Source of the DNA: Candidatus Nealsonbacteria bacterium
GTDB taxonomy: Bacteria; Patescibacteriota; Minisyncoccia; Minisyncoccales; CAZKCU01
Direction: 5' to 3'
Assembly: GCA_047456305.1 (NCBI GenBank)
Contig: CP179888.1
Coordinates: forward strand, 317,307 to 381,306
Length of the DNA stretch: 64,000 bases
Shown here: in pieces, positions 1,533-62,362 of the stretch
Layout: each line of letters starts with the position of its first letter
Position numbering within the stretch: the first letter of the stretch is position 1
Made by a program: the position numbers and the translations under genes
Notes under the pieces: model-generated
What the model was told of the DNA's origin: nothing
Seen by the model: only the letters and a program-made list of their open reading frames with translations
Databases searched by the model: none

Positions 1533-3259
1533 AAAATCAAGAAATAGCTAAAATATTATATGGAATAGCCCAATATCTCGAGATGGAAGGAGTGGCTTTC
1601 AAGCCCTATGCCTATGAGAAGGCAGCCCTGACTTTGGAAACCTTGGAGGAAGATATTGAAGAAATTTATAAAAAAGGGGGGATTAAAGCCCTAAAAGATA
1701 TTCCCGGGATAGGAGAAAGCATTGCCGAGAAAATTGAAGAATATTTAAAAACCGGAAAGATAAGGTATTACCAAGAACTTAAGAGAAAAACTCCGCTGAA
1801 TCTCGGAGAATTAGTAGCTGTGGAGGGAATGGGCCCAAAAAAGGTAAAAGTATTATACCAAAAATTGGGGATTAGAAATTTAAAAGATTTAGAGAAAGCA
1901 GCCAGAGCTCACAAAATTGCTCCTCTCTTCGGTTTTGGGGAAAAAACTGAAAAAAATATCTTGGAGGGGATAGCTTTTTTGAAAAGAAGTAAAGGAAGAT
2001 TTCTTTTAGGAGAGATTTTGCCAGTCGTTAAAGAAGTTTATGAAAAATTAAAAAGTTTAAAAGAAGTTGAAAAAGTTGATTCGGCAGGTTCTATCAGAAG
2101 AATGAAAGAAACAATCGGCGATGTCGATTTTTTGGTAATTTCCAAAAATCCAGAGAAAGTTATGGATTTTTTTGTTCAGCTACCTGGGGTTATTAAAATT
2201 TGGGGCAAGGGCAAAACTAAATCATCGGTTAAAATGAGAGAAGGTTTCGATATGGATATTAGAGTGGTGCCAAGGAAAAGTTATGGTTCGGCTCTCCAAT
2301 ACTTTACTGGTTCAAAAGAACATAATATCGCCACCAGAAAAATTGCCATACAGAAGGGTTTAAAACTGAATGAATATGGAGTTTTCCGGGGGGAGAAACA
2401 GATTGCTGGGAGAAATGAAGAAGAAGTTTATAAAATCTTAGGGATGACTTGGATACCTCCTGAGTTGAGAGAAAACCAGGGCGAAATTGGAGCAGCCCTC
2501 CGACAGGCTCAGGGTAAATCAAATGGGTTACCAAAGTTAGTCGAACTAAAAGATATTAAAGGTGATTTACATTGCCATTCCAAATGGGATGGAGGAACAA
2601 ATACAATTTTTGAGATGGCCGAAGCTGCCAGAAAAATGGGATATGAATATTTAGGAATTACTGATCATACTAAATTTCTACGAATTGAGCATGGCTTGGA
2701 TGAAAAGAAATTAGCTTTACAAAGAAAAGAAATTGATAAATTGAATAGCCGATTAAAGAATTTCAAAATTTTTCAGGGAGCAGAAACAAACATTTTAAAT
2801 GATGGCTCAATTGATATAAAAGATGAGGCATTAAAAAAATTAGATTATGCCATAGCCGGGGTTCATTCTAGTTTTAAAATGGAAAAATCTAAAATGACCG
2901 AAAGAATTATTCAGGCAATGAAAAATCCCTATATTAAAATTATTTCCCATCCAACTGGGAGAATATTGAAGAGAAGAGATGAGTATCAAATTGACTTTGG
3001 CAAGATTTTAAGAGCAGCTAAAGAATTTGGAGTAATTTTGGAAGTTAATTCTTTTCCAGAAAGGTTAGATTTAAATGATAAAAACGTTAGAGCGGCCAAA
3101 GAGATGGGAGTTAAAATAGTCATAAATACAGATTCTCATCGCAGAAGCCAATTAAGGTATATGGAGTTTGGAGTATATCAAGCTAGGAGAGGATGGGCAG
3201 AAAAAAAAGATATAATTAATACCCAACCACTTGAGAAATTGTTGAAATTTTTCAAATAA
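1529..3259 (+). CDS. polX: DNA polymerase X family protein with C-terminal PHP domain
   Basis: 576 aa; N-terminal HhH/pol-beta-like region (GIGESIAEKI, GDVDFLV) and PHP histidinol-phosphatase motifs (GDLHCHS, ITDH). Confidence 0.85.
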   Translation: MKNQEIAKILYGIAQYLEMEGVAFKPYAYEKAALTLETLEEDIEEIYKKGGIKALKDIPGIGESIAEKIEEYLKTGKIRYYQELKRKTPLNLGELVAVEGMGPKKVKVLYQKLGIRNLKDLEKAARAHKIAPLFGFGEKTEKNILEGIAFLKRSKGRFLLGEILPVVKEVYEKLKSLKEVEKVDSAGSIRRMKETIGDVDFLVISKNPEKVMDFFVQLPGVIKIWGKGKTKSSVKMREGFDMDIRVVPRKSYGSALQYFTGSKEHNIATRKIAIQKGLKLNEYGVFRGEKQIAGRNEEEVYKILGMTWIPPELRENQGEIGAALRQAQGKSNGLPKLVELKDIKGDLHCHSKWDGGTNTIFEMAEAARKMGYEYLGITDHTKFLRIEHGLDEKKLALQRKEIDKLNSRLKNFKIFQGAETNILNDGSIDIKDEALKKLDYAIAGVHSSFKMEKSKMTERIIQAMKNPYIKIISHPTGRILKRRDEYQIDFGKILRAAKEFGVILEVNSFPERLDLNDKNVRAAKEMGVKIVINTDSHRRSQLRYMEFGVYQARRGWAEKKDIINTQPLEKLLKFFK

Positions 3260-33264: not shown

Positions 33265-33624
33265 CTATGAGAGTTTAAGGCCCTCAACTTTTGCAGGGTC
33301 GAGAGTGTTCTCATTATTTAGCGGAAACAGAGTTACTTTTTCACTAGTGAAGTGAGGAGTAAGGATAAGCTGGCCGCGGATTATTGATATACGATAAAGT
33401 TTCAAATTTCTTACATATCCGCAAGAGGCAAATATATCCTCCTTTACCCATTTATTTCCTTCTTTTTTTGCCAACCATTCGCACTGGATCAGAAGCGTAT
33501 TATTCCTAATGATGGCATTTTTAATTCTGCCTTGGTATAAATAACTTCTGTCTTTATTCTGGTCTTTATTCTGAATTTTTATATCACCTACAAATTCTGT
33601 AAGTATTTCATTGGTAAGGTTCAT
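33265..33624 (-). CDS. hypothetical protein (119 aa)
   Basis: ORF preceded by a strong SD (GAAGGAGGG, 4 nt before ATG); no recognisable motif; adjacent to tRNA-Leu. Confidence 0.4.
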   Translation of the reverse strand: MNLTNEILTEFVGDIKIQNKDQNKDRSYLYQGRIKNAIIRNNTLLIQCEWLAKKEGNKWVKEDIFASCGYVRNLKLYRISIIRGQLILTPHFTSEKVTLFPLNNENTLDPAKVEGLKLS

Positions 33625-33692
33625 AACTTCCCTCCTTCGTTATGCTATTAAATGTCTTTTATTATATTAGCAAATTGATTTTTTAAAAATTG

Positions 33693-33776
33693 TGCCGGAG
33701 GTGGGACTTGAACCCACAAGCCCTTGCGGACAGTAGATTTTGAATCTACCCTGTTTTCCAATTTCAGCACTCCGGC
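33693..33776 (-). tRNA. tRNA-Leu (anticodon CAA), class II with long variable arm
   Basis: Reverse complement GCCGGAG..CTCCGGCA acceptor stem; anticodon stem-loop GTAGA-TTCAAAA-TCTAC; variable arm GTCCGCAAGGGCTTGT; T-arm GTGGGTTCAAGTCCCAC; CCA not encoded. Confidence 0.9.
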
Positions 33777-33791
33777 AAGTACTTTATTCTT

Positions 33792-35906
33792 TTATTTTGC
33801 CATATTTTTCTCGAAATTGCAATCTTTGTCGGAACACTTAATTTTCCTCCCTTTTTCTACCAAAAGTGAGCCGCATTTTGGGCATTTTTTTCCTGTTGGC
33901 TTATCCCATAAGGCAAAATCACATTTTGGCCATTGATTGCAGCCATAAAAGATTTTTTTCTTTTTAGTTCTTTTTTCAACTATCTCACCCTTTTTACATT
34001 TTGGGCATTTAATTCCCAATTTCTTTTTTTCAAAAGGTTCAGTATATTTACATTTAGGAAAGCGAGAGCAGCCATAGAATTTTCCGAATTTCCCCAGCCG
34101 AATTAAAAGTTGGGCTTTGCATTCTGGACAGATTTTTTCGGTTTTTTCAGTTAAAACCTTTTTTGAAACCTCCTGATATTTTTGTTTTAGGTTTTTTTCG
34201 AAAGGATTGTAAAAATCTCTTATAACCTGAACCCATTTTTCTTTCCCTTGGGCAATTTTATCTAAATCCTCTTCCATTAGGGCGGTAAATTTAATATCAA
34301 CAATTTTTGGGAAGTGTTCTACCAAAATATCGTTCACTACTGTTCCAATTTCAGTTGGTTGAAAGCGCTTCTCTGTATTTTTCTCAATATAATTTCTTTC
34401 TTGAACTGTAGATAAAATGGGGGCATAAGTTGAGGGTCTGCCAATACCATTTTCTTCCAAAGCCTTAATTAGAGTAGCTTCACTGTATCGAGGAGGAGGC
34501 TGAGTAAAGTGCTGGGAAGGAATTAATTTTATAAGTTCTAAAATTTCATTTATCTCTAAAAGTGGCAATTCAGTCTCCTCATATCTTATTGGATATATTT
34601 TTAGAAATCCATCAAACTTCAAGACCTGGCCAGTAGCTTTAAAAGTGTAATTTTTAGCGCCAATATCAATAGTCGTTGAGTCAAGAACAGCTTGACTCAT
34701 CTGACAAGCAATAAATCTTCGCCAGATAAGATCGTAAAGCCGAAACTGCCTCTTGTCTAATTTTGCTTTAATTTTTAAATTTTCAGGAGTTTTCTCAGGA
34801 TAGGTCGGCCTTATTGCCTCATGAGCTTCCTGGGCCCTTTTAATTTTTGTTTTATATCTTCTTAAAAAACCAGCCCAATATTCTTTGCCATAACTCTCAA
34901 TGATAAATTTTCTGGCAGCAAATAAAGATAAATCAGAGAGATTCAGAGAATCGGTTCGATGGTAACTCGTGTATCCCCTTTCATAAAGTTGTTGTGCCAC
35001 TTGCATTGTTAGCCTTGCCGGCCAGTGAAACCTTTTCCAGGTTTCCTGTTGTAAGGTGCTGGTGCTAAATGGCGGTAGGGGATTCCTTTTCACTTCCTTT
35101 CTTTCAATATTGATTACTTTGTATACACAAGCTCGGCGAAGCCGAGCGCAGCGTGAAGATGAAGCGTTAGCTTCATCGACTTCAGCTTTTTCTAAATCTT
35201 TAACAATTTTATCTGCTTCTTTTTTAATTTTAATTCCAAGTTTTGGAATAGTTTCCCCATCTCTTTTAATTAAAATAGCTTCAAGTTGCGGAGAACCGTT
35301 CTCTGTAATTTTCTTAAGTTGGGCGGCAATTGTCCAGTATTCTTGGGGTACAAAATTTTTAATTTCTCTTTCCCTTTCTACAACCAGACGAACTGCTACT
35401 GACTGAACTCTTCCAGCTGACAGGCGTCGAGCCACCTTTTTCCATAAAAAAGGGGATAATTTATAACCAACAATTCTATCTAAAATTCTTCTCGTTTGTT
35501 GAGCATCAACCAAATTTAAATCAATTTTTCTTGGATTCTTTAATGCCTCCTCAATAGCAGATTTTGTAATCTCATGAAAAACAATTCTTTGATAAGGTTT
35601 TTGGCCATTTAGATTTAAAATCTTGGTCAAATGCCAGGCAATACTTTCGCCCTCTCTGTCCGGATCGGTACTTACTATTACTAAATCTGCTTTCTCCACC
35701 TCTTTTTTTAAAACCTGAATTATCTTTCTTGATTTGGGAGGAATAACATATTTAGGTTTAAAGTTATGTTCAACATCAATCCCAAATTCACCCTTAGGCA
35801 AATCTCTGATGTGACCATAGGAAGAAAGAACCCGATATTTAGGGCCTAAAAATCCTTGAAGTGTTTTTGATTTCGTTGGTGACTCAACTACTACGATTAA
35901 TTGCAT
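33792..35906 (-). CDS. topA: DNA topoisomerase I
   Basis: 704 aa; Toprim (VVVESPTKSKT), active-site region YTSYHRTDS, C-terminal C4 zinc-ribbon repeats. Confidence 0.95.
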   Translation of the reverse strand: MQLIVVVESPTKSKTLQGFLGPKYRVLSSYGHIRDLPKGEFGIDVEHNFKPKYVIPPKSRKIIQVLKKEVEKADLVIVSTDPDREGESIAWHLTKILNLNGQKPYQRIVFHEITKSAIEEALKNPRKIDLNLVDAQQTRRILDRIVGYKLSPFLWKKVARRLSAGRVQSVAVRLVVEREREIKNFVPQEYWTIAAQLKKITENGSPQLEAILIKRDGETIPKLGIKIKKEADKIVKDLEKAEVDEANASSSRCARLRRACVYKVINIERKEVKRNPLPPFSTSTLQQETWKRFHWPARLTMQVAQQLYERGYTSYHRTDSLNLSDLSLFAARKFIIESYGKEYWAGFLRRYKTKIKRAQEAHEAIRPTYPEKTPENLKIKAKLDKRQFRLYDLIWRRFIACQMSQAVLDSTTIDIGAKNYTFKATGQVLKFDGFLKIYPIRYEETELPLLEINEILELIKLIPSQHFTQPPPRYSEATLIKALEENGIGRPSTYAPILSTVQERNYIEKNTEKRFQPTEIGTVVNDILVEHFPKIVDIKFTALMEEDLDKIAQGKEKWVQVIRDFYNPFEKNLKQKYQEVSKKVLTEKTEKICPECKAQLLIRLGKFGKFYGCSRFPKCKYTEPFEKKKLGIKCPKCKKGEIVEKRTKKKKIFYGCNQWPKCDFALWDKPTGKKCPKCGSLLVEKGRKIKCSDKDCNFEKNMAK
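35129..35180 (-). repeat. Family A repeat, copy A6, in frame inside topA (forward relative to the mRNA)
   Basis: + strand AAGCTCGG CGAAG CCGAGC-GCA-GCGTGAA-GATGAAGC GTTA GCTTCATC-GAC; translated (minus strand) EVDEANASSSRCARLRRAC. Confidence 0.7.
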
Positions 35907-36753
35907 AAATATTTCTTCCTAAATTCCTTACTTTATCTTTTATTTCCAAAATAGCAAGGGTGCTGGCTACAATAGAAGCCGGAAGTTTTGTTTTTTCAAT
36001 AATTTTATCAATGTCTAAAGCCCCTTCCTTTAAAGTAGCCAAAATTAAATTTTCTTCCTTATTTTCACCTACTACGTTGCCGGGTTTCGTAATTTCGAGA
36101 AGGTTTAGCTCTTTTAGAATGTCGTTGGCATTTTCGACTAATTTCGCACCATTTTTGATTAAATAATGAGGGCCTTTTGAATTTAAAGAATGGATTAGAC
36201 CAGGAACGGCAAAAATTTTTCTTCCTTGTTTCTTAGCCCAGTCTGCCGTAATTAAAGCTCCTGATTTTTGTTTAGCTTCCACAACTAAAACTCCAAAAGA
36301 AAGACCAGAAATTATCCGATTTCTCTGGGGAAAAGTGAATTTTGACCCAGGAGTTCCCGAAGGATATTCGGAAATTAAACACCCTCCGGTTTCTAAAATC
36401 CTTTGAGCTAATTTTAAATTCGACTGGGGATAAATACTTTTTTCATCAAGCCCGGTACCTAAAACAGCAATCGTTCTTTTGTTTCTTTCAACTGTTGCTG
36501 TATGAGCGAAAGTATCAATTCCTGGTGCTAATCCTGAAACAATAATTAATCCTGCTTCAGCTAAATCTCCAGCAATTTCTAAAGCTACCTGTTTCCCGTA
36601 AGGAGAGCACATTCTGGTTCCAACTATGGCAAAACATTGCTCATGGGGATTGAGTTCTCCCCTAACATAAAGAATCTCCGGAGGGTTAATAATTTTTTTG
36701 AGAAGCTCAAAGTATTTTTTATCTTTAATAGTTATGGTTTTAATCTCGTCCAT
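35884..36753 (-). CDS. dprA: DNA processing protein DprA
   Basis: 289 aa; VGTRMCSPYG, SGLAPGIDTFAH, Rossmann-like DprA core. Confidence 0.9.
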   Translation of the reverse strand: MDEIKTITIKDKKYFELLKKIINPPEILYVRGELNPHEQCFAIVGTRMCSPYGKQVALEIAGDLAEAGLIIVSGLAPGIDTFAHTATVERNKRTIAVLGTGLDEKSIYPQSNLKLAQRILETGGCLISEYPSGTPGSKFTFPQRNRIISGLSFGVLVVEAKQKSGALITADWAKKQGRKIFAVPGLIHSLNSKGPHYLIKNGAKLVENANDILKELNLLEITKPGNVVGENKEENLILATLKEGALDIDKIIEKTKLPASIVASTLAILEIKDKVRNLGRNIYAINRSS

Positions 36754-36765
36754 TTTTAGAGTTTA

Positions 36766-38721
36766 TCATTTCGCCTTTAATTTTTCTATACTTTCCGATA
36801 GTATCTGGCAATAAAGATTGAGACCGATTGAGTTTATGTTTCCTGATTGCTCTTTGCCCAAAATATTACCTCCTCCTCTCATTTCTAAATCTTTTAAAGC
36901 AATTCGATAACCTGAACCTAATTCCTCAGCTTCTTTTAAGGCCTGAAGTCTTTCTTCTGCCAGGGGAGAAAGTCTTTGAGGATATAAAAAGTAAGAGAAG
37001 GCCTGAATATGGGAACGGCCGATTCTTCCCCGGATTTGATAAGCTTCTGCCAGACCCAACCTTGTTGAATCAGCAACAATTAAAGTATTCACATTGGGCA
37101 AATCAAGGCCATTTTCAATAATAGTAGTCGCGACTAAAACATCAATTTTTTTATTCTGGAAATCTTCCATTACTTTGACTAATTCCTTTTCTTTTAATCT
37201 TCCATGAGCTATTCCAAATTTTGCTTTTGGAGATAAGTTTTCTAAAAACCTTTTTACCATTTCAATTGTTTCTATTCTATTATGCAAATAATAAATTTGG
37301 CCGCCTCTTTCAATTTCAGTTTCAATTGCTTCTTTAATTATTTTATCCTTGAAAGACAAAATAAAAGTTTTAACTGGCAATCTGCCAACCGGTGGAGTTT
37401 GAATCAGGCTAATATCTTTTAAGGAAGAGAGGGCCATATATAAAGTTCGGGGGATAGGGGTTGCAGAAAGGCTTAAAATATCTAAAGAGGCCCTTATTTT
37501 CTTTAATTTTTCTTTTTGCCTAACTCCAAATCTTTGTTCGTCATCAATAACCAATAGTCCCAAATTTTTAAATTCGACATCAGAAGACAAAATTCGGTGA
37601 GTGCCCACCGCTATATCAACTTTCCCATTTTTTAAATCATTAATTATTTCTCTCTGCTTTTTTTTGGATTGTAACCTGGATAGCATTGCTATTTTAACTG
37701 GTAAATTTTTTAATCGTCCCTTAAAATTTTGAAAATGTTGAGAAGCTAAAATAGTAGTTGGACAAATCATGGCTGCCTGATAGCCAGAATTAACTACCTT
37801 TATCATTGCCCTCAAAGCTACCTCCGTCTTTCCAAATCCAACATCGCCGCAAACAATTCTATCCATTGGTTCTGGCTTCTCTAAATCCTTTTTTATATCT
37901 TCAATTGCCTGGGATTGATCCGGAGTCTCTTCAAATTGGAAAGAAGAATTTATTTGGAGATTTATCTCATCTTCTGATAAATAAGGAGGACGAGTGACAA
38001 TTTCTCTAATAGCCGCAACCTCTAAAAGTTCTCTGGCTAATTTTTCAACTTCTTCCTTGATTTTTCTTTTTGTTCTCTGCCAGAGAGGAGAGCCGAGCCG
38101 GGAAATTTTTGGTTTAATAAAACCAATGTAGCGAGATAATTTTCTTTCTAATCCTACTGGAACATACAATTTATCTCCCTGAGCATATTCGAGTTGGTAA
38201 TATTGTTGATTGTTAATTGCTAATTGTCGATTGTATATTCCTATGCCGTGGTCTAAATGAACTAAATAATCTTTGGGCTTTAATCCCTTTAAATCGGAAA
38301 ATAGTTTTTGGGATTTTAATTTCTTTTTTAAAATCTCTTTTGATTTCTTCTCATCTTCAACCCTTATATCTAAAGATTCAATATTCTCAATTTGATTTCC
38401 AAAAAATTCAAAACGAACAGCTAAATTTAGATTTACTGGAAAAACATCAATAATTCCTCCTCTCTGGGAAAATTCTCCGGGTTCTGAAACTCTCAAAACT
38501 TTTTCATATCCCATCTCGTCCAATTTTCTTAAAAATTGAGAAAAATTGTAAATTTGATTTCTTTCTAAATATAAAGTATTGTCTTCAAAAAAAGATTGAG
38601 TTTTCTTGGCTTCTAAAATTTTTCTTAGATTTTCCTCAAACCAAAAAACAGGCTTTTCTAAAAAATAGGGGGTAAGCCCAACAATTAAGACTTTTTCTAA
38701 TCTTAATCTTGACAAATCCAT
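36766..38721 (-). CDS. mfd: transcription-repair coupling factor, compact form
   Basis: 651 aa; UvrB-like GEFSQRGGIIDVFP, RNAP-interaction region LVHLDHGIGIY, helicase motifs GDVGFGKTEVA, DDEQRFG, GRIGRS. Confidence 0.85.
   Translation of the reverse strand: MDLSRLRLEKVLIVGLTPYFLEKPVFWFEENLRKILEAKKTQSFFEDNTLYLERNQIYNFSQFLRKLDEMGYEKVLRVSEPGEFSQRGGIIDVFPVNLNLAVRFEFFGNQIENIESLDIRVEDEKKSKEILKKKLKSQKLFSDLKGLKPKDYLVHLDHGIGIYNRQLAINNQQYYQLEYAQGDKLYVPVGLERKLSRYIGFIKPKISRLGSPLWQRTKRKIKEEVEKLARELLEVAAIREIVTRPPYLSEDEINLQINSSFQFEETPDQSQAIEDIKKDLEKPEPMDRIVCGDVGFGKTEVALRAMIKVVNSGYQAAMICPTTILASQHFQNFKGRLKNLPVKIAMLSRLQSKKKQREIINDLKNGKVDIAVGTHRILSSDVEFKNLGLLVIDDEQRFGVRQKEKLKKIRASLDILSLSATPIPRTLYMALSSLKDISLIQTPPVGRLPVKTFILSFKDKIIKEAIETEIERGGQIYYLHNRIETIEMVKRFLENLSPKAKFGIAHGRLKEKELVKVMEDFQNKKIDVLVATTIIENGLDLPNVNTLIVADSTRLGLAEAYQIRGRIGRSHIQAFSYFLYPQRLSPLAEERLQALKEAEELGSGYRIALKDLEMRGGGNILGKEQSGNINSIGLNLYCQILSESIEKLKAK
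38200..38234. repeat. 7-nt periodic tandem array H9 inside mfd
   Basis: ATATTGT TGATTGT TAATTGC TAATTGT CGATTGT; translated (minus strand) NRQLAINNQQY. Confidence 0.75.
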
Positions 38722-38737
38722 TTTATTAAATTATAAT
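38709..38737 (+). promoter_or_regulatory. consensus sigma70-type promoter facing the small ORF cassette
   Basis: TTGACA (38709-14), 17-nt spacer, TATAAT (38732-37); overlaps the mfd start codon on the other strand. Confidence 0.5.
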
Positions 38738-38788
38738 ATAATATAATACTTCTTTTACAAGTTTTGGACTAAAGAATTAAACATTTTT

Positions 38789-38944
38789 CCTTCCAGTCTA
38801 CCTGTGAGTGGCTAAACCGAGTACATAAATTTTTTACGTGCTCGGGGATGGATTCTAAGCAATCCCTCCTTAAGCTTAGTAGCCTTAAGTTATGGATTGG
38901 AACTTTTGTTCTTAATTTATAGCGCTCGGAGGTAGACTGGAGGG
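38789..38944 (+). ncRNA. unclassified structured element (5' leader/sRNA, or MITE with 15-bp terminal inverted repeats)
   Basis: CCTTCCAGTCTACCT (38789-803) pairs with AGGTAGACTGGAGGG (38930-44), 14 Watson-Crick pairs plus 1 G:U; internal hairpins include D1 (38817-45) and GGATT-CTAAGC-AATCC. Confidence 0.4.
38817..38845. repeat. Family D hairpin, copy D1
   Basis: CCGAGTACATAAAT..ACGTGCTCGG, related to D2/D3 at 39296-39355. Confidence 0.6.
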
Positions 38945-38971
38945 TAAAAAGAAAATTAAAAAGGAGGCAAA

Positions 38972-39217
38972 ATGAAAATATGTGAAATTTGTGGCAATGA
39001 CGATTTGAGTGAGATCGAAGTTAGGATTGAAGAAAGCAGAGTTACGTTCAAGACATTTAAAGCAAACGACTTGAAAAATCCGATTAAGGTCGATGATGAC
39101 GTTCCAGAACATATAGTTAAGTCGATAGAAGCAGCAAAATGTACTAAGTGTGGAAACGAGTTTGACGGCGATGAGTTGGACAAGCTATCCAAAGAAATAG
39201 GGGTGTCAGTTTTCTGA
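38972..39217 (+). CDS. small zinc-ribbon-like protein (81 aa)
   Basis: CEIC near the N-terminus and CTKC about 55 aa later; strong SD AAAGGAGG 5 nt upstream; followed by a stem-loop; an antisense ORF also exists but lacks these signals. Confidence 0.5.
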   Translation: MKICEICGNDDLSEIEVRIEESRVTFKTFKANDLKNPIKVDDDVPEHIVKSIEAAKCTKCGNEFDGDELDKLSKEIGVSVF

Positions 39218-39221
39218 CGCA

Positions 39222-39280
39222 AAGCCGAGGCGAGGGGTGATTTAAGCTCCCTCTATTCCTTGTCTCGGCTTTTCTATTTA
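39222..39280 (+). terminator. stem-loop after the small ORF
   Basis: AAGCCGAG..(inner hairpin GAGGG/CCCTC)..CTCGGCTT followed by TTCTATTTATT. Confidence 0.4.
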
Positions 39281-39295
39281 TTAAATTTATTCATT

Positions 39296-39355
39296 CCAGA
39301 GCACATAAATATTATTTATGTGCTCGGCCGAGCACATATGTTATATGTGCTCTGG
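39296..39355. repeat. Family D hairpins D2 and D3 (tandem, mutually complementary)
   Basis: CCAGAGCACATAAAT ATT ATTTATGTGCTCGG then CCGAGCACATAT GTT ATATGTGCTCTGG; overlaps the last 13 codons and the stop of pth. Confidence 0.7.
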
Positions 39356-39906
39356 GCTTTTCCTAAACCTGATTTTAAAGAAAGCTCAATCGCCTCAACC
39401 GTTTTTTTAATCACTTCTTTAACTATCTTTTCTTCTTCTTTGTTAAATTTTTGAAGAACAAATTTTTCGGGATTTTTAGGTTTGCCAAACTTAGGTTGAA
39501 TGCCAATTCTAAACCTAACAAAATTTTTAGTTTCAATTTCTTTAATTATTGATTTCACTCCTTTGTGGCCAGCCGAACCACGATTTTTGACAATTCGGAT
39601 TTTACCCAGGGGCAAATCAATGTCGTCGTGAATTACTAAAACATTTGACATTTGACACTTAACACTTAACACTACTTTTTTTACTGCTTGGCCAGAGAGA
39701 TTCATAAAAGTAAGCGGTTTTGCGAGTAAAACTTTTTGGCTGTTAATCTCACCTTTACTAATTTCAGCCTGTAATTTTTTTATATTTTTCCAATCCGAAA
39801 ATTTGTCAATTGTTAATTGTAAATTGTCAATTGTCATAAAGCCAAGATTGTGGCGAGTTTTTTGAAATTTTTCTCCGGGATTACCCAGACCAAGGATAAT
39901 TCTCAT
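39316..39906 (-). CDS. pth: peptidyl-tRNA hydrolase
   Basis: LGLGNPG..TRHNLGF, MNLSG, GSAGHKG motifs. Confidence 0.9.
   Translation of the reverse strand: MRIILGLGNPGEKFQKTRHNLGFMTIDNLQLTIDKFSDWKNIKKLQAEISKGEINSQKVLLAKPLTFMNLSGQAVKKVVLSVKCQMSNVLVIHDDIDLPLGKIRIVKNRGSAGHKGVKSIIKEIETKNFVRFRIGIQPKFGKPKNPEKFVLQKFNKEEEKIVKEVIKKTVEAIELSLKSGLGKAQSTYNICARPST
39642..39676. repeat. 7-nt periodic tandem array H10 inside pth
   Basis: CATTTGA CATTTGA CACTTAA CACTTAA CACTACT; translated (minus strand) VVLSVKCQMSN. Confidence 0.8.
39800..39834. repeat. 7-nt periodic tandem array H11 inside pth
   Basis: AATTTGT CAATTGT TAATTGT AAATTGT CAATTGT; translated (minus strand) TIDNLQLTIDKF. Confidence 0.8.
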
Positions 39907-39936
39907 AGTTATTTAATTATAAGCAAAGCTTGAAGT

Positions 39937-62059: not shown

Positions 62060-62362
62060 TTAGACAATGGAGGCACTAAATCCCTGGTATGAACCTGGAA
62101 CGCCTTCAAGGGCCTTATGCGCCATTTCATTTCCGATCCTAAACTTTATCTCATAATTGTCTATCCTATCTCTTATTTTTTCGCTTTTGCCTTTCTTTAA
62201 AAAGAGCTTGTTTATTGCTTTGATATCCTTTCTCCAGCTCTTCACCTGCCTTCTTTTAAGGATAATTTCCTCTCCTTTATGTAAACTCTCTTTTTCAATA
62301 TATAAGAACAGATTTTCAATTCTTAAGAGCGGGTCATTAACTTCTAAGGCATATTTTTCCAT
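62060..62362 (-). CDS. hypothetical protein (100 aa)
   Basis: ORF preceded by a strong SD (AAGGAAGGAGGAAG); no motif recognised. Confidence 0.35.
   Translation of the reverse strand: MEKYALEVNDPLLRIENLFLYIEKESLHKGEEIILKRRQVKSWRKDIKAINKLFLKKGKSEKIRDRIDNYEIKFRIGNEMAHKALEGVPGSYQGFSASIV

Follow-up and report, generated by a model that had tools for sequence, protein, structure and literature searches.

A conserved structured RNA gene beside pth in Patescibacteria, with an invariant CU-rich loop and a variable downstream gene slot

The pth-mfd locus and its structured element

We analyzed the region between mfd and pth (the gene for peptidyl-tRNA hydrolase) in a 64,000-nucleotide (nt) stretch of a Candidatus Nealsonbacteria genome (GenBank assembly GCA_047456305.1, contig CP179888.1, positions 317,307 to 381,306 of the forward strand), which we refer to in full as the window and whose first letter is position 1. 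An earlier note, made by a model from the letters of the window, had described in this spacer a promoter, a 156-nt closed structure, a small open reading frame (ORF), a terminator and a pair of palindromes, and had proposed that the closed structure was a regulatory leader or riboswitch, a small RNA, or a miniature inverted-repeat transposable element (MITE). The spacer is GC-richer than its surroundings, as that note stated (0.38-0.42 versus 0.26-0.33 in the flanks), and the features that it contains, together with the two genes on either side, are listed in Table 1. ORFs located on the 3′ side of the structured element are referred to below as cargo, and individual homologous loci are cited by L numbers.

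Table 1. Features of the window between and including mfd and pth
Feature	Position	Strand	Remarks
mfd	36766-38721	-	short 651-aa form, divergent from RNA gene; TIGR00580 796 bits
RNA-gene promoter	38709-38737	+	TTGACA (38709-14), 17-nt spacer, TATAAT (38732-37); 12/12 match
Palindrome ATTATAAT	38730-38737		potential -10 box for both divergent promoters
Structured RNA	38784-38950	+	includes outer U4/A4 extension of closing helix P1; fold z = -7.7 and -9.4
P1, 5′ strand	38789-38809	+	pairs with 38924-38944, 21 bp; 95.2% of cells paired, 11/21 pairs compensatory
P2, 5′ strand (GGCU)	38810-38813	+	pairs with 38881-38884 (AGCC); 4/4 pairs compensatory
P2a hairpin CCGAGUACAU...ACGUGCUCGG	38817-38845	+	optional, variable; 10/10 pairs covary
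Linker GGGAUGGAU(U)	38846-38854	+	Shine-Dalgarno-like, complementary to invariant loop
P2b hairpin	38855-38879	+	6-bp stem (38855-60 with 38874-79); 6/6 pairs covary
P3 hairpin	38889-38923	+	9 bp, internal loop, 4 bp, U-rich tetraloop 38904-07; 13/13 pairs compensatory
Shine-Dalgarno sequence AAGGAGG	38961-38967	+	4 nt before ATG; complementary to RNA loop (CCUCCUU)
Cargo gene, 81-aa putative zinc ribbon	38972-39217	+	CxxC...CxxC
Intrinsic terminator of RNA-cargo transcript	39221-39278	+	hairpin 39221-39272, then U-rich UUUUCUAUUU; -27.8 kcal/mol, z = -4.5
Nested palindromic insertion, 60 nt	39296-39355		two tandem hairpins inside outer 12-bp inverted repeat; fold z = -8.5
pth	39316-39906	-	convergent with RNA gene; PF01195 7e-60, TIGR00447

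Folding of the segment 38789-38944 gives -73.7 kcal/mol, compared with -38.9 ± 3.7 kcal/mol for dinucleotide shuffles of the same sequence (z = -9.4, with 0 of 200 shuffles as good). The closed structure of 156 nt is therefore real, but its stem, which had been put at 15 bp, is longer, with 21 bp and a further UUUU/AAAA extension. Combined with the covariation described below, this analysis shows a predicted three-way junction closed by a helix of about 26 bp, in an RNA of about 120-165 nt. The inner part of the closing helix P1 is kept in sequence (yCUAyCUGCGAGU / GCUCGCAGGUAGrcc), and the outer extension, UUUUR/YAAAA, is present with at least 4 bp in 37 of 66 distinct loci, bringing the closing helix to about 26 bp. 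Hairpin P2a is missing from 13 of the 49 distinct sequences that we aligned; the window copy has one A-C mismatch, and in close relatives, where the 156-nt element is otherwise identical, a single C-to-U change (at C38837) restores the pair. The loop of P2b, AAUCCCUCCUUAA (13 nt, 38861-38873), is unpaired in the consensus structure, and across the family this invariant, CU-rich loop spans 11-13 nt.

The linker that joins P2a to P2b can itself pair with this loop, forming a duplex of -10.4 kcal/mol in the window and of -8 to -11.6 kcal/mol in 20 of the 49 sequences. In single-sequence minimum free energy structures, the loop is masked in 20 of 49 sequences (the subclade of the window) and fully open in another 20, and it is open in the members without P2a. 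We also considered pairing of the loop with the GGAGGG of the P1 3′ strand as a conserved pseudoknot, and rejected it since this strand varies (AAAGGA in L016). A mutual information (MI) scan for additional or pseudoknot pairs gave nothing convincing, the best pair outside the helices being columns 30-78 (MI 0.73). Separately, a motif, UUUUGCUCUUAC, located 8-12 nt 3′ of P1 is kept in L013, L018, L104, L007, L098, L057 and others; it can pair with the P1 3′ strand plus its CAAAA flank (GAGGGCAAAA), and this pairing may represent an alternative hairpin or a second regulatory element.

Homologues, covariation and the identity of the element

A search with the Pth protein, using one genome per species, led us to metagenome-assembled genomes (MAGs) of Patescibacteria labelled Nealsonbacteria, Portnoybacteria, Paceibacteria and 'Saccharibacteria', and in ten of these genomes the pth-mfd spacer (180-1010 bp) contains the same promoter and a homologue of the element on the opposite strand. 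The stem sequences of these ten homologues differ, while the loop, AUCCCUCCU, is identical in 10 of 10; because the genomes were found through the Pth protein, this identity is independent of any search based on the loop. A covariance model (CM) built from 11 sequences was then applied to metagenome stretches retrieved by a loop-plus-stem pattern, and returned 59 + 20 sense-strand matches at E < 1e-9, one per contig. Over the resulting 79 genome and metagenome loci, all from Patescibacteria, the RNA is single-copy and lies on the strand opposite to pth, just beyond the pth 3′ end, with pth downstream of and convergent with the element at each locus where the contig is long enough. Ten pth loci of more distant Patescibacteria (Kuenen-, Falkow-, Gracilibacteria and others) gave no homologue even with the CM filters off, and all four pattern matches in viral contigs were rejected by the CM. 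These searches show the predicted RNA to be specific to a clade of Patescibacteria (MAGs titled Nealsonbacteria, Portnoybacteria and Paceibacteria).

Covariation was measured on an alignment (A3) of the 49 distinct sequences. Standard pairs occupy 93.7% of pair cells, compared with 74.8% in shuffled alignments (0 of 500 reach the observed value) and 34-50% when pairing partners are slid by 1-3 columns. Changes on both sides were found in 44 of 54 pairs, and six of six helices covary, so that the stem and the inner hairpins, whose conservation the earlier note had proposed to check in homologous regions, are both conserved and covarying. RNAalifold, run on a plain MAFFT alignment not fitted to the model, recovered P1 and P3, with 20 of its 36 predicted pairs compensatory. 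The element is also strand-specific: the window scores 158.7 bits on the plus strand versus 29.7 bits on the minus strand, and across sequences the sense scores are 55-161 bits and the antisense scores 22-38 bits. In an alignment fitted to the plus-strand model, G-U/U-G cells number 351 and A-C/C-A cells 68, an excess which indicates that the transcribed strand is the plus strand of the window.

The promoter is conserved with the element. The perfect match that the note had placed at the mfd start is present, with its -35 box covering mfd codons 2-4 (the mfd ATG is 38721-38719, minus strand), and about 45 of the 54 distinct homologous loci have a TTGAC[AT]-N16-18-TAnAAT sequence, which precedes the element by 13-79 nt. 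Comparison of these loci thus shows a near-consensus sigma-70 promoter from which the RNA would be transcribed, on the strand opposite to pth and mfd. Together, these comparative data strongly support, and in our view show, that the element and its promoter form a genuine single-copy gene for a structured small RNA, which is the one supported reading among the three alternatives offered in the note.

The same data bear on the proposal that the element is a MITE or other mobile DNA, with 15-21-bp terminal inverted repeats, inserted between pth and mfd. Its long terminal inverted repeat, its GC content above that of the flanks and the related small palindromes close by would all suit such an element. 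However, the stem sequence occurs in the 64 kb only as its own two arms, and there is one copy per contig at a fixed site in 79 loci; target-site duplication is absent, as the UUUUR/YAAAA flanks lengthen the helix instead of forming direct repeats; every close relative carries the element, with no empty site among them; and none was found in viral contigs. Compensatory substitutions, strand-asymmetric G-U pairs and a conserved promoter are further features that mobile DNA does not account for, and the behaviour of a mini-insertion is limited to the separate 60-nt palindrome block at 39296-39355. These data refute the MITE reading of the 156-nt element, and we give next to no weight to a mobile origin for it.

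Our searches, like the note, found no match of the element to tRNA, 6S, SRP, RNase P or riboswitch types. Rfam 15, applied to window positions 38600-39450 at E <= 10, returned chance-level matches (the best, frnS, at 20.5 bits versus a gathering score of 60), and a weak match to DUF2815-RNA (E = 1.9) was discarded, being confined to the Shine-Dalgarno (SD) region. At the gathering threshold, the whole 64-kb window gave tRNA-Leu only and no rRNA, the element was unmatched in 11 homologous loci at E <= 1, and ARAGORN detected no tmRNA, and a tRNA-Leu only, elsewhere in the window. The RNA is likewise not described in the literature that we searched, and the family is new in the sense that it is uncatalogued in both. 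A highly divergent housekeeping RNA, for example one resembling 5S rRNA or 6S RNA, is a very remote prospect. The minimal forms of about 120 nt do share the topology of 5S rRNA (helix I, a helix II-III arm with a 13-nt loop C, and a helix V-IV arm with loop D), the long P1 looks like the processing stem of a 5S precursor, strongly conserved sequence together with a consensus promoter is what a housekeeping RNA would have, and the tRNA-Leu of the window is likewise followed by an SD-led accessory ORF. Against this, the 5S_rRNA, 6S, SRP, RNase P and tmRNA models gave no match (E <= 10 in the window, E <= 1 in the 11 homologues), none of the conserved 5S and 6S motifs is visible by eye, and the RNA is absent at the more distant Patescibacteria pth loci examined.

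Flanking genes and the variable slot

In the homologous loci, mfd is typically located upstream of the RNA and divergent from it. At no fewer than five loci (L043, L044, L060, L061 and L097), dprA/topA are found in place of mfd, and the RNA and its promoter are kept; since the RNA persists where mfd is missing, it does not depend on mfd. The genes seen next to the RNA are mfd, dprA and topA at one end and pth, lepB and hisS at the other, and among them there is no reverse transcriptase, TnpB/IscB or IS110 gene of the kind by which a retron or guide RNA would be recognized. In the window, the 651-aa Mfd keeps the UvrB-interaction, RID and helicase modules and matches positions 288-821 of the 907 in the TIGR00580 profile. 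There, mfd, dprA and topA are consecutive and lack SD sites, with the topA start and the dprA end overlapping by 23 nt (35884-35906), a layout consistent with translational coupling in the operons of this organism.

The palindrome ATTATAAT places a minus-strand TATAAT whose end lies 8 nt before the SD-less ATG of mfd, which suggests a leaderless mfd mRNA, and TAnAAT is found 7-12 nt before an SD-less mfd start in 32 of 32 distinct loci. The mfd and RNA promoters may share one -10 element and be mutually exclusive. This geometry raises the possibility that the gene acts by cis-antisense or promoter interference on pth-mfd, uncoupling or tuning pth, mfd and dprA, with the fold serving stability or kissing-loop initiation. 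The transcript would be perfectly complementary to any pth-to-mfd read-through transcript, the note was correct that transcription is antisense to pth (the two genes are always convergent), and the distance from the pth stop to the RNA ranges from -5 to about 1066 nt, with the RNA abutting or overlapping the stop (-5 to +15 nt) at several loci; where they abut, no U-tract terminator of pth lies between them. The overlap of the RNA promoter with the mfd start codon, and a -10 palindrome that could serve both directions, point the same way. We nevertheless consider this highly improbable as the function of the RNA, as the RNA is unchanged where mfd has been lost, selection acts on the plus-strand fold (351 versus 68 cells) and on an invariant loop, neither of which occlusion needs, and where cargo intervenes its terminator would stop the transcript before pth, as in the window.

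Comparison of the window with its relative L006 (CAYSLI010000001.1; window 36713-39921) locates the boundary between constant and variable sequence. From mfd through 38950 the two are 95.5% identical in nucleotides, with the RNA identical at 155 of 156 positions, and beyond 38950 there is no similarity until pth (67% nucleotide and 58% amino acid identity), the cargo genes being unrelated. Identity is lost 6 nt past P1, which puts the breakpoint of a recombination right where the RNA ends on its 3′ side, and the RNA is more conserved than the neighbouring coding sequence, a sign of purifying selection on the RNA. A locus in which mfd and the RNA are nearly identical, and pth and the cargo are not, is a mosaic that implies recombination. 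In addition, the spacers around the element and the ORF differ in close relatives, which lack the palindromes. Of the small acquired module proposed in the note, the ORF, terminator and palindromes are thus strain-variable, and the ORF is absent from relatives, but the promoter and the RNA are vertically conserved and retained.

The cargo differs from locus to locus. We identified at least eight unrelated cargo families, including an LPxGF family, a VKPGD family, a pentapeptide-repeat protein, two other Cys-rich mini-proteins, and peptides of 45-60 aa that combine a hydrophobic helix with a charged tail. For example, the genomes retrieved with Pth carry downstream of the element a 64-aa ORF, a 57-aa membrane peptide, a 37-aa ORF, two ORFs or none, and at about a dozen loci there is no space for an ORF and the RNA directly abuts pth. 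Among ORF-less loci, a T-run or terminator directly follows P1 in L010, L056, L051, L097 and L017, and no terminator was seen between P1 and pth in L016, L074, L093, L061 and L088. In the window, the stem-loop terminator reported after the ORF was confirmed, and relatives have equivalent GC hairpins with T-runs. These comparisons show a slot 3′ of P1 that is, on sequence evidence, prone to recombination and that is either empty or holds one or two unrelated accessory ORFs; recombination between the conserved flanks, the RNA and pth, appears to swap the cargo.

This pattern is also the main difficulty for a cis-regulatory leader or riboswitch, in which the structure would sense a ligand or protein, possibly a signal related to cyclic dinucleotides, and control the next ORF. 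At about three-quarters of loci, at least one SD-led ORF does begin 20-45 nt after the RNA with no terminator between them, and seven loci (L103, L075, L131, L122, L128, L109 and L113) carry, directly 3′ of the RNA, a GGDEF-domain cargo protein of about 160 aa (PF00990 matched at 6e-23 and 9e-23 in the two that were scanned); some of these proteins have transmembrane helices at the N terminus. The masked and exposed conformations of the window subclade could also be read as a switch of this type. But the genes downstream show neither homology to one another nor a common function, an ORF is missing altogether from about a dozen loci, and termination comes immediately after P1 in L010 and L056; the 26-bp closing helix far exceeds the switchable P1 of known riboswitches, no Rfam riboswitch matches, and the best-conserved single-stranded residues resemble a pairing seed and not a binding pocket. 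The leader or riboswitch reading offered in the note is weakened to the point where we regard it as quite improbable. As an observation in its own right, GGDEF proteins are unusual signalling equipment for genomes so reduced.

The cargo of the window, led by a strong SD as the note described, is a putative zinc-ribbon protein found at five loci (54-98% identity), with C4, C7, C57 and C60 invariant in four homologues of 56-98% identity. It falls in 2 clusters among 5.8 billion proteins, on contigs that share the mfd-pth site, and has 4 representatives among 1.84 billion proteins. NCBIfam returned weak matches below the cut-off to ECs_2282 and YgiT zinc-finger models, Pfam and PADLOC returned none, and PHROGs gave weak matches only, to families of unknown function. 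A PDB sequence search yielded only spurious repeat proteins, and the AF2 model, of moderate confidence (pLDDT, the predicted local distance difference test, 72.5), had no significant neighbour in the PDB by Foldseek. We also considered an analogy with Fin (YabK) of Bacillus subtilis, whose zinc-finger gene sits between pth and mfd on the same strand as both, and rejected it, since Pfam shows no similarity and the strand is opposite. The most distant homologue (P0004, 78 aa) is encoded at L150 (Ga0315268_10021472, 3001-3237), within a phage-like array of 15 small co-oriented genes that includes NUMOD3, DUF2958 and DUF6011 and lacks the RNA.

The tandem palindromes proved to be present, as described, but to form a single nested insertion of 60 nt that overlaps the last 13 pth codons and replaces the native Pth C-terminal tail. 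The relationship of their arms to the copy inside the element also holds, as these match hairpin 38817-38845, and the arms (GAGCACAUAA...) are those of P2a in the window subclade. The 10-mer family of these palindromes occurs 6 times in the window, confined to this region, versus 0.76 expected. The insertion is absent from L001, L002 and L004, where the uninterrupted site is TTCATTGCTTTT; the same tandem insertion occupies the same site at the pth 3′ end in L114 (1241-1295), and a solitary hairpin lies at the mfd 3′ end in L074 (1963-1986). We class the P2a-like hairpins GAGCACAUAA..UUAUGUGCUC, from these sequence matches, as a small dispersed palindrome family of the subclade, whether this is a mobile element like the repetitive extragenic palindromes (REP) or a protein-binding module.

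The invariant loop, its candidate role and related systems

The E. coli 16S rRNA 3′ tail is AUCACCUCCUUA, and the loop AAUCCCUCCUUAA matches this textbook sequence, which is a comparator and not the 16S rRNA of the host itself, at 11 of 12 positions; a 16S 3′ end was sought in the fetched loci, and none is present in them. The loop is complementary to AAGGAGG, with complementarity of 7-8 nt to the SD sequences of the cargo, and these are out of keeping with the host genes around them. An SD precedes the first ATG in 0-1 of 42 long window ORFs, an SD is missing from 55 of the 56 distinct pth starts, the remaining one being a weak match, and from all 32 distinct mfd starts, and at pth and mfd a TAnAAT box precedes the start by 7-12 nt, as is characteristic of leaderless or near-leaderless mRNAs. 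Many window genes have TAnAAT 7-16 nt before the ATG, for example at 38721(-), 39906(-), 40068(+), 46675(+) and 53201(+), which suggests that mRNAs of this organism are mostly leaderless or have very short leaders. Under naive start calling, 23 of 43 cargo ORFs have a strong SD, most of the others having mis-called starts within a AAGGAGGUG tract, and nearly all cargo ORFs carry a canonical SD, AAGGAGG(UG). In the simplest reading, cargo is co-transcribed with the RNA, cannot be leaderless and therefore needs an SD. The window has just two other small ORFs with a clear SD, and both fit this reading of co-transcription: one of 119 aa (33265-33624, minus strand; perfect SD AAGGAGGGAAGTTATG), which begins 68 nt after tRNA-Leu(CAA) (33692-33776, minus strand), and one of 100 aa (approx. 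62060-62362, minus strand; SD AAGGAGGAAGAAAATG), which may be a further accessory or foreign gene. At L150, the one phage-like contig examined, 13 of 14 gene starts examined have SD sites.

The best explanation of these observations, to which we assign a probability of roughly 0.55, is that the gene encodes a stable small RNA whose loop pairs with SD sequences and which has a swappable cargo slot at its 3′ side. The function remains a candidate one, as we infer the pairing from complementarity. In this model, the primary transcript would be cut within the long P1 helix by a double-strand-specific RNase, releasing the stable RNA and, at loci that have cargo, a separate mRNA for it. The loop, being exposed, would then pair with SDs of the AAGGAGG type, in cis on the mRNA of its own cargo, where the site lies 20-45 nt downstream, and possibly also in trans on the few SD-led mRNAs, competing with the ribosome and lowering translation. 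In the window subclade, the inserted module (P2a plus the SD-like linker GGGGAUGGAUU) would mask the loop, and the fact that the loop is masked with P2a and the linker and open without P2a suggests an on/off conformational switch.

Several observations weigh against this explanation. Cargo SDs are often GGAGGUG, a better fit to the canonical 16S tail (CACCUCC) than to the loop (CCCUCC), so that they look like ordinary SDs and not like sequences evolved for the RNA. The number of sites in the window that are complementary to the loop is that expected by chance (28 found versus 27.9 expected), with no specific trans target among them. The loop is equally invariant at loci without cargo, and cis control of cargo is thus not its sole role. 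Its invariance in the metagenome loci is partly forced, as the loop was part of the search pattern, and independent support comes from about ten genomes. Finally, strict synteny with pth is left unexplained by a mechanism of SD pairing.

Some of these same observations suit a protein-binding decoy or ribonucleoprotein, in which the loop would mimic the 16S 3′ tail GAUCACCUCCUUA and P1 a pre-rRNA processing stem, so that the RNA titrates a factor acting on the 16S end. Candidates for such a factor are Era, a 3′-end-trimming RNase, an RNase or toxin that cleaves the anti-SD (aSD) sequence, bS21 or a hibernation factor. The 11 of 12 match to the tail includes the flanking AUC and UUA, which minimal SD pairing does not need; sequence, and not pairing alone, is kept in the inner half of P1 and at several G-U wobbles, which is typical of protein recognition; the loop stays invariant even where there is no cargo; and no trans mRNA target is detectable in the window. 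However, no candidate partner gene is linked to the RNA, the neighbours being pth, mfd, dprA, topA and lepB, and the tail of 16S rRNA is a free 3′ end, while the matching sequence here is enclosed in a hairpin loop. We consider this alternative unlikely. Decidedly unlikely, in our assessment, is a general anti-SD decoy, in which an abundant RNA would sequester the SD-led mRNAs of phages and mobile elements, along with those of the cargo, leaving host translation untouched. The SD-less host genes and the SD-led cargo, and possibly the SD-led, phage-like array at L150, lend partial support to this proposal, which might amount to a sequence-generic, RNA-based form of xenogeneic silencing or innate immunity, with masking of the loop by P2a and the linker as its switch.

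Patescibacteria, also known as the Candidate Phyla Radiation (CPR), account for a large part of the diversity of bacteria, and to our knowledge almost none of their lineage-specific regulatory RNAs have been described. The RNA reported here is a class supported by covariation and easy to test, with an invariant loop resembling the 16S tail, a fixed site at pth and swappable SD-led cargo. If the loop truly competes for SDs, it bears on how SD-independent organisms handle SD-led foreign genes, and on the acquisition and silencing of tiny accessory genes in minimal genomes. Even if its function is different, a model of the family gives annotators a means to prevent 150-nt spacers of this kind from being labelled empty, mobile or protein-coding.

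Comparison with known systems reveals partial likenesses. With REP/MITE-like palindromes, only the block at 39296-39355 is comparable, as a short nested palindrome with gene-end copies in the window, L114 and L074, but its family has only three hairpin copies in 64 kb, one of which is P2a itself. The slot resembles the accessory-gene hot spots at tRNA and tmRNA genes, in that a stable-RNA gene has variable, partly phage-like genes on its 3′ side, but it lacks an integrase or attachment-site repeats, and its cargo is one or two tiny ORFs. Hydrophobic peptides of 45-60 aa behind a structured, anti-SD-like RNA recall type I toxin-antitoxin systems and leader-controlled ORFs; here, however, conservation of the RNA does not depend on the ORF, most of the cargo does not resemble toxins (zinc ribbons and GGDEF proteins are among it) and there is no antisense partner gene.

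Two ribosomal RNAs offer structural parallels. The order and size of helices in forms without P2a, with an internal loop in each arm and with one arm ending in a 13-nt terminal loop and the other in a tetraloop, are like those of 5S rRNA (RF00001), but the closing helix is 21-26 bp, versus about 10 bp in 5S. As with the 16S 3′ tail and pre-rRNA stems (the substrates of RNase III and RNase M5), the RNA combines the 11 of 12 loop match with a body enclosed by a long, perfectly paired helix of its 5′ and 3′ flanks, as in the 16S, 23S and 5S precursors; unlike the 16S tail, its aSD-like sequence is a closed loop, and it has no further similarity to rRNA and lies outside an rRNA operon. With regard to the proposed mechanism, Staphylococcus aureus RNAIII, RsaE/RoxS (with 'UCCC' loops), the actinobacterial 6C RNA (RF01066) and cyanobacterial Yfr1 are alike in being stable, independently transcribed RNAs with a CU-rich, anti-GGAGG hairpin loop and an expected action through occlusion of ribosome-binding sites. 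The RNA described here has no homology to them in sequence or structure, and differs in its three-way junction with a closing helix of about 26 bp, in its tie to pth synteny and in its cargo slot. As the genes of its host lack SDs, its target space would be unusually small compared with that of these RNAs.

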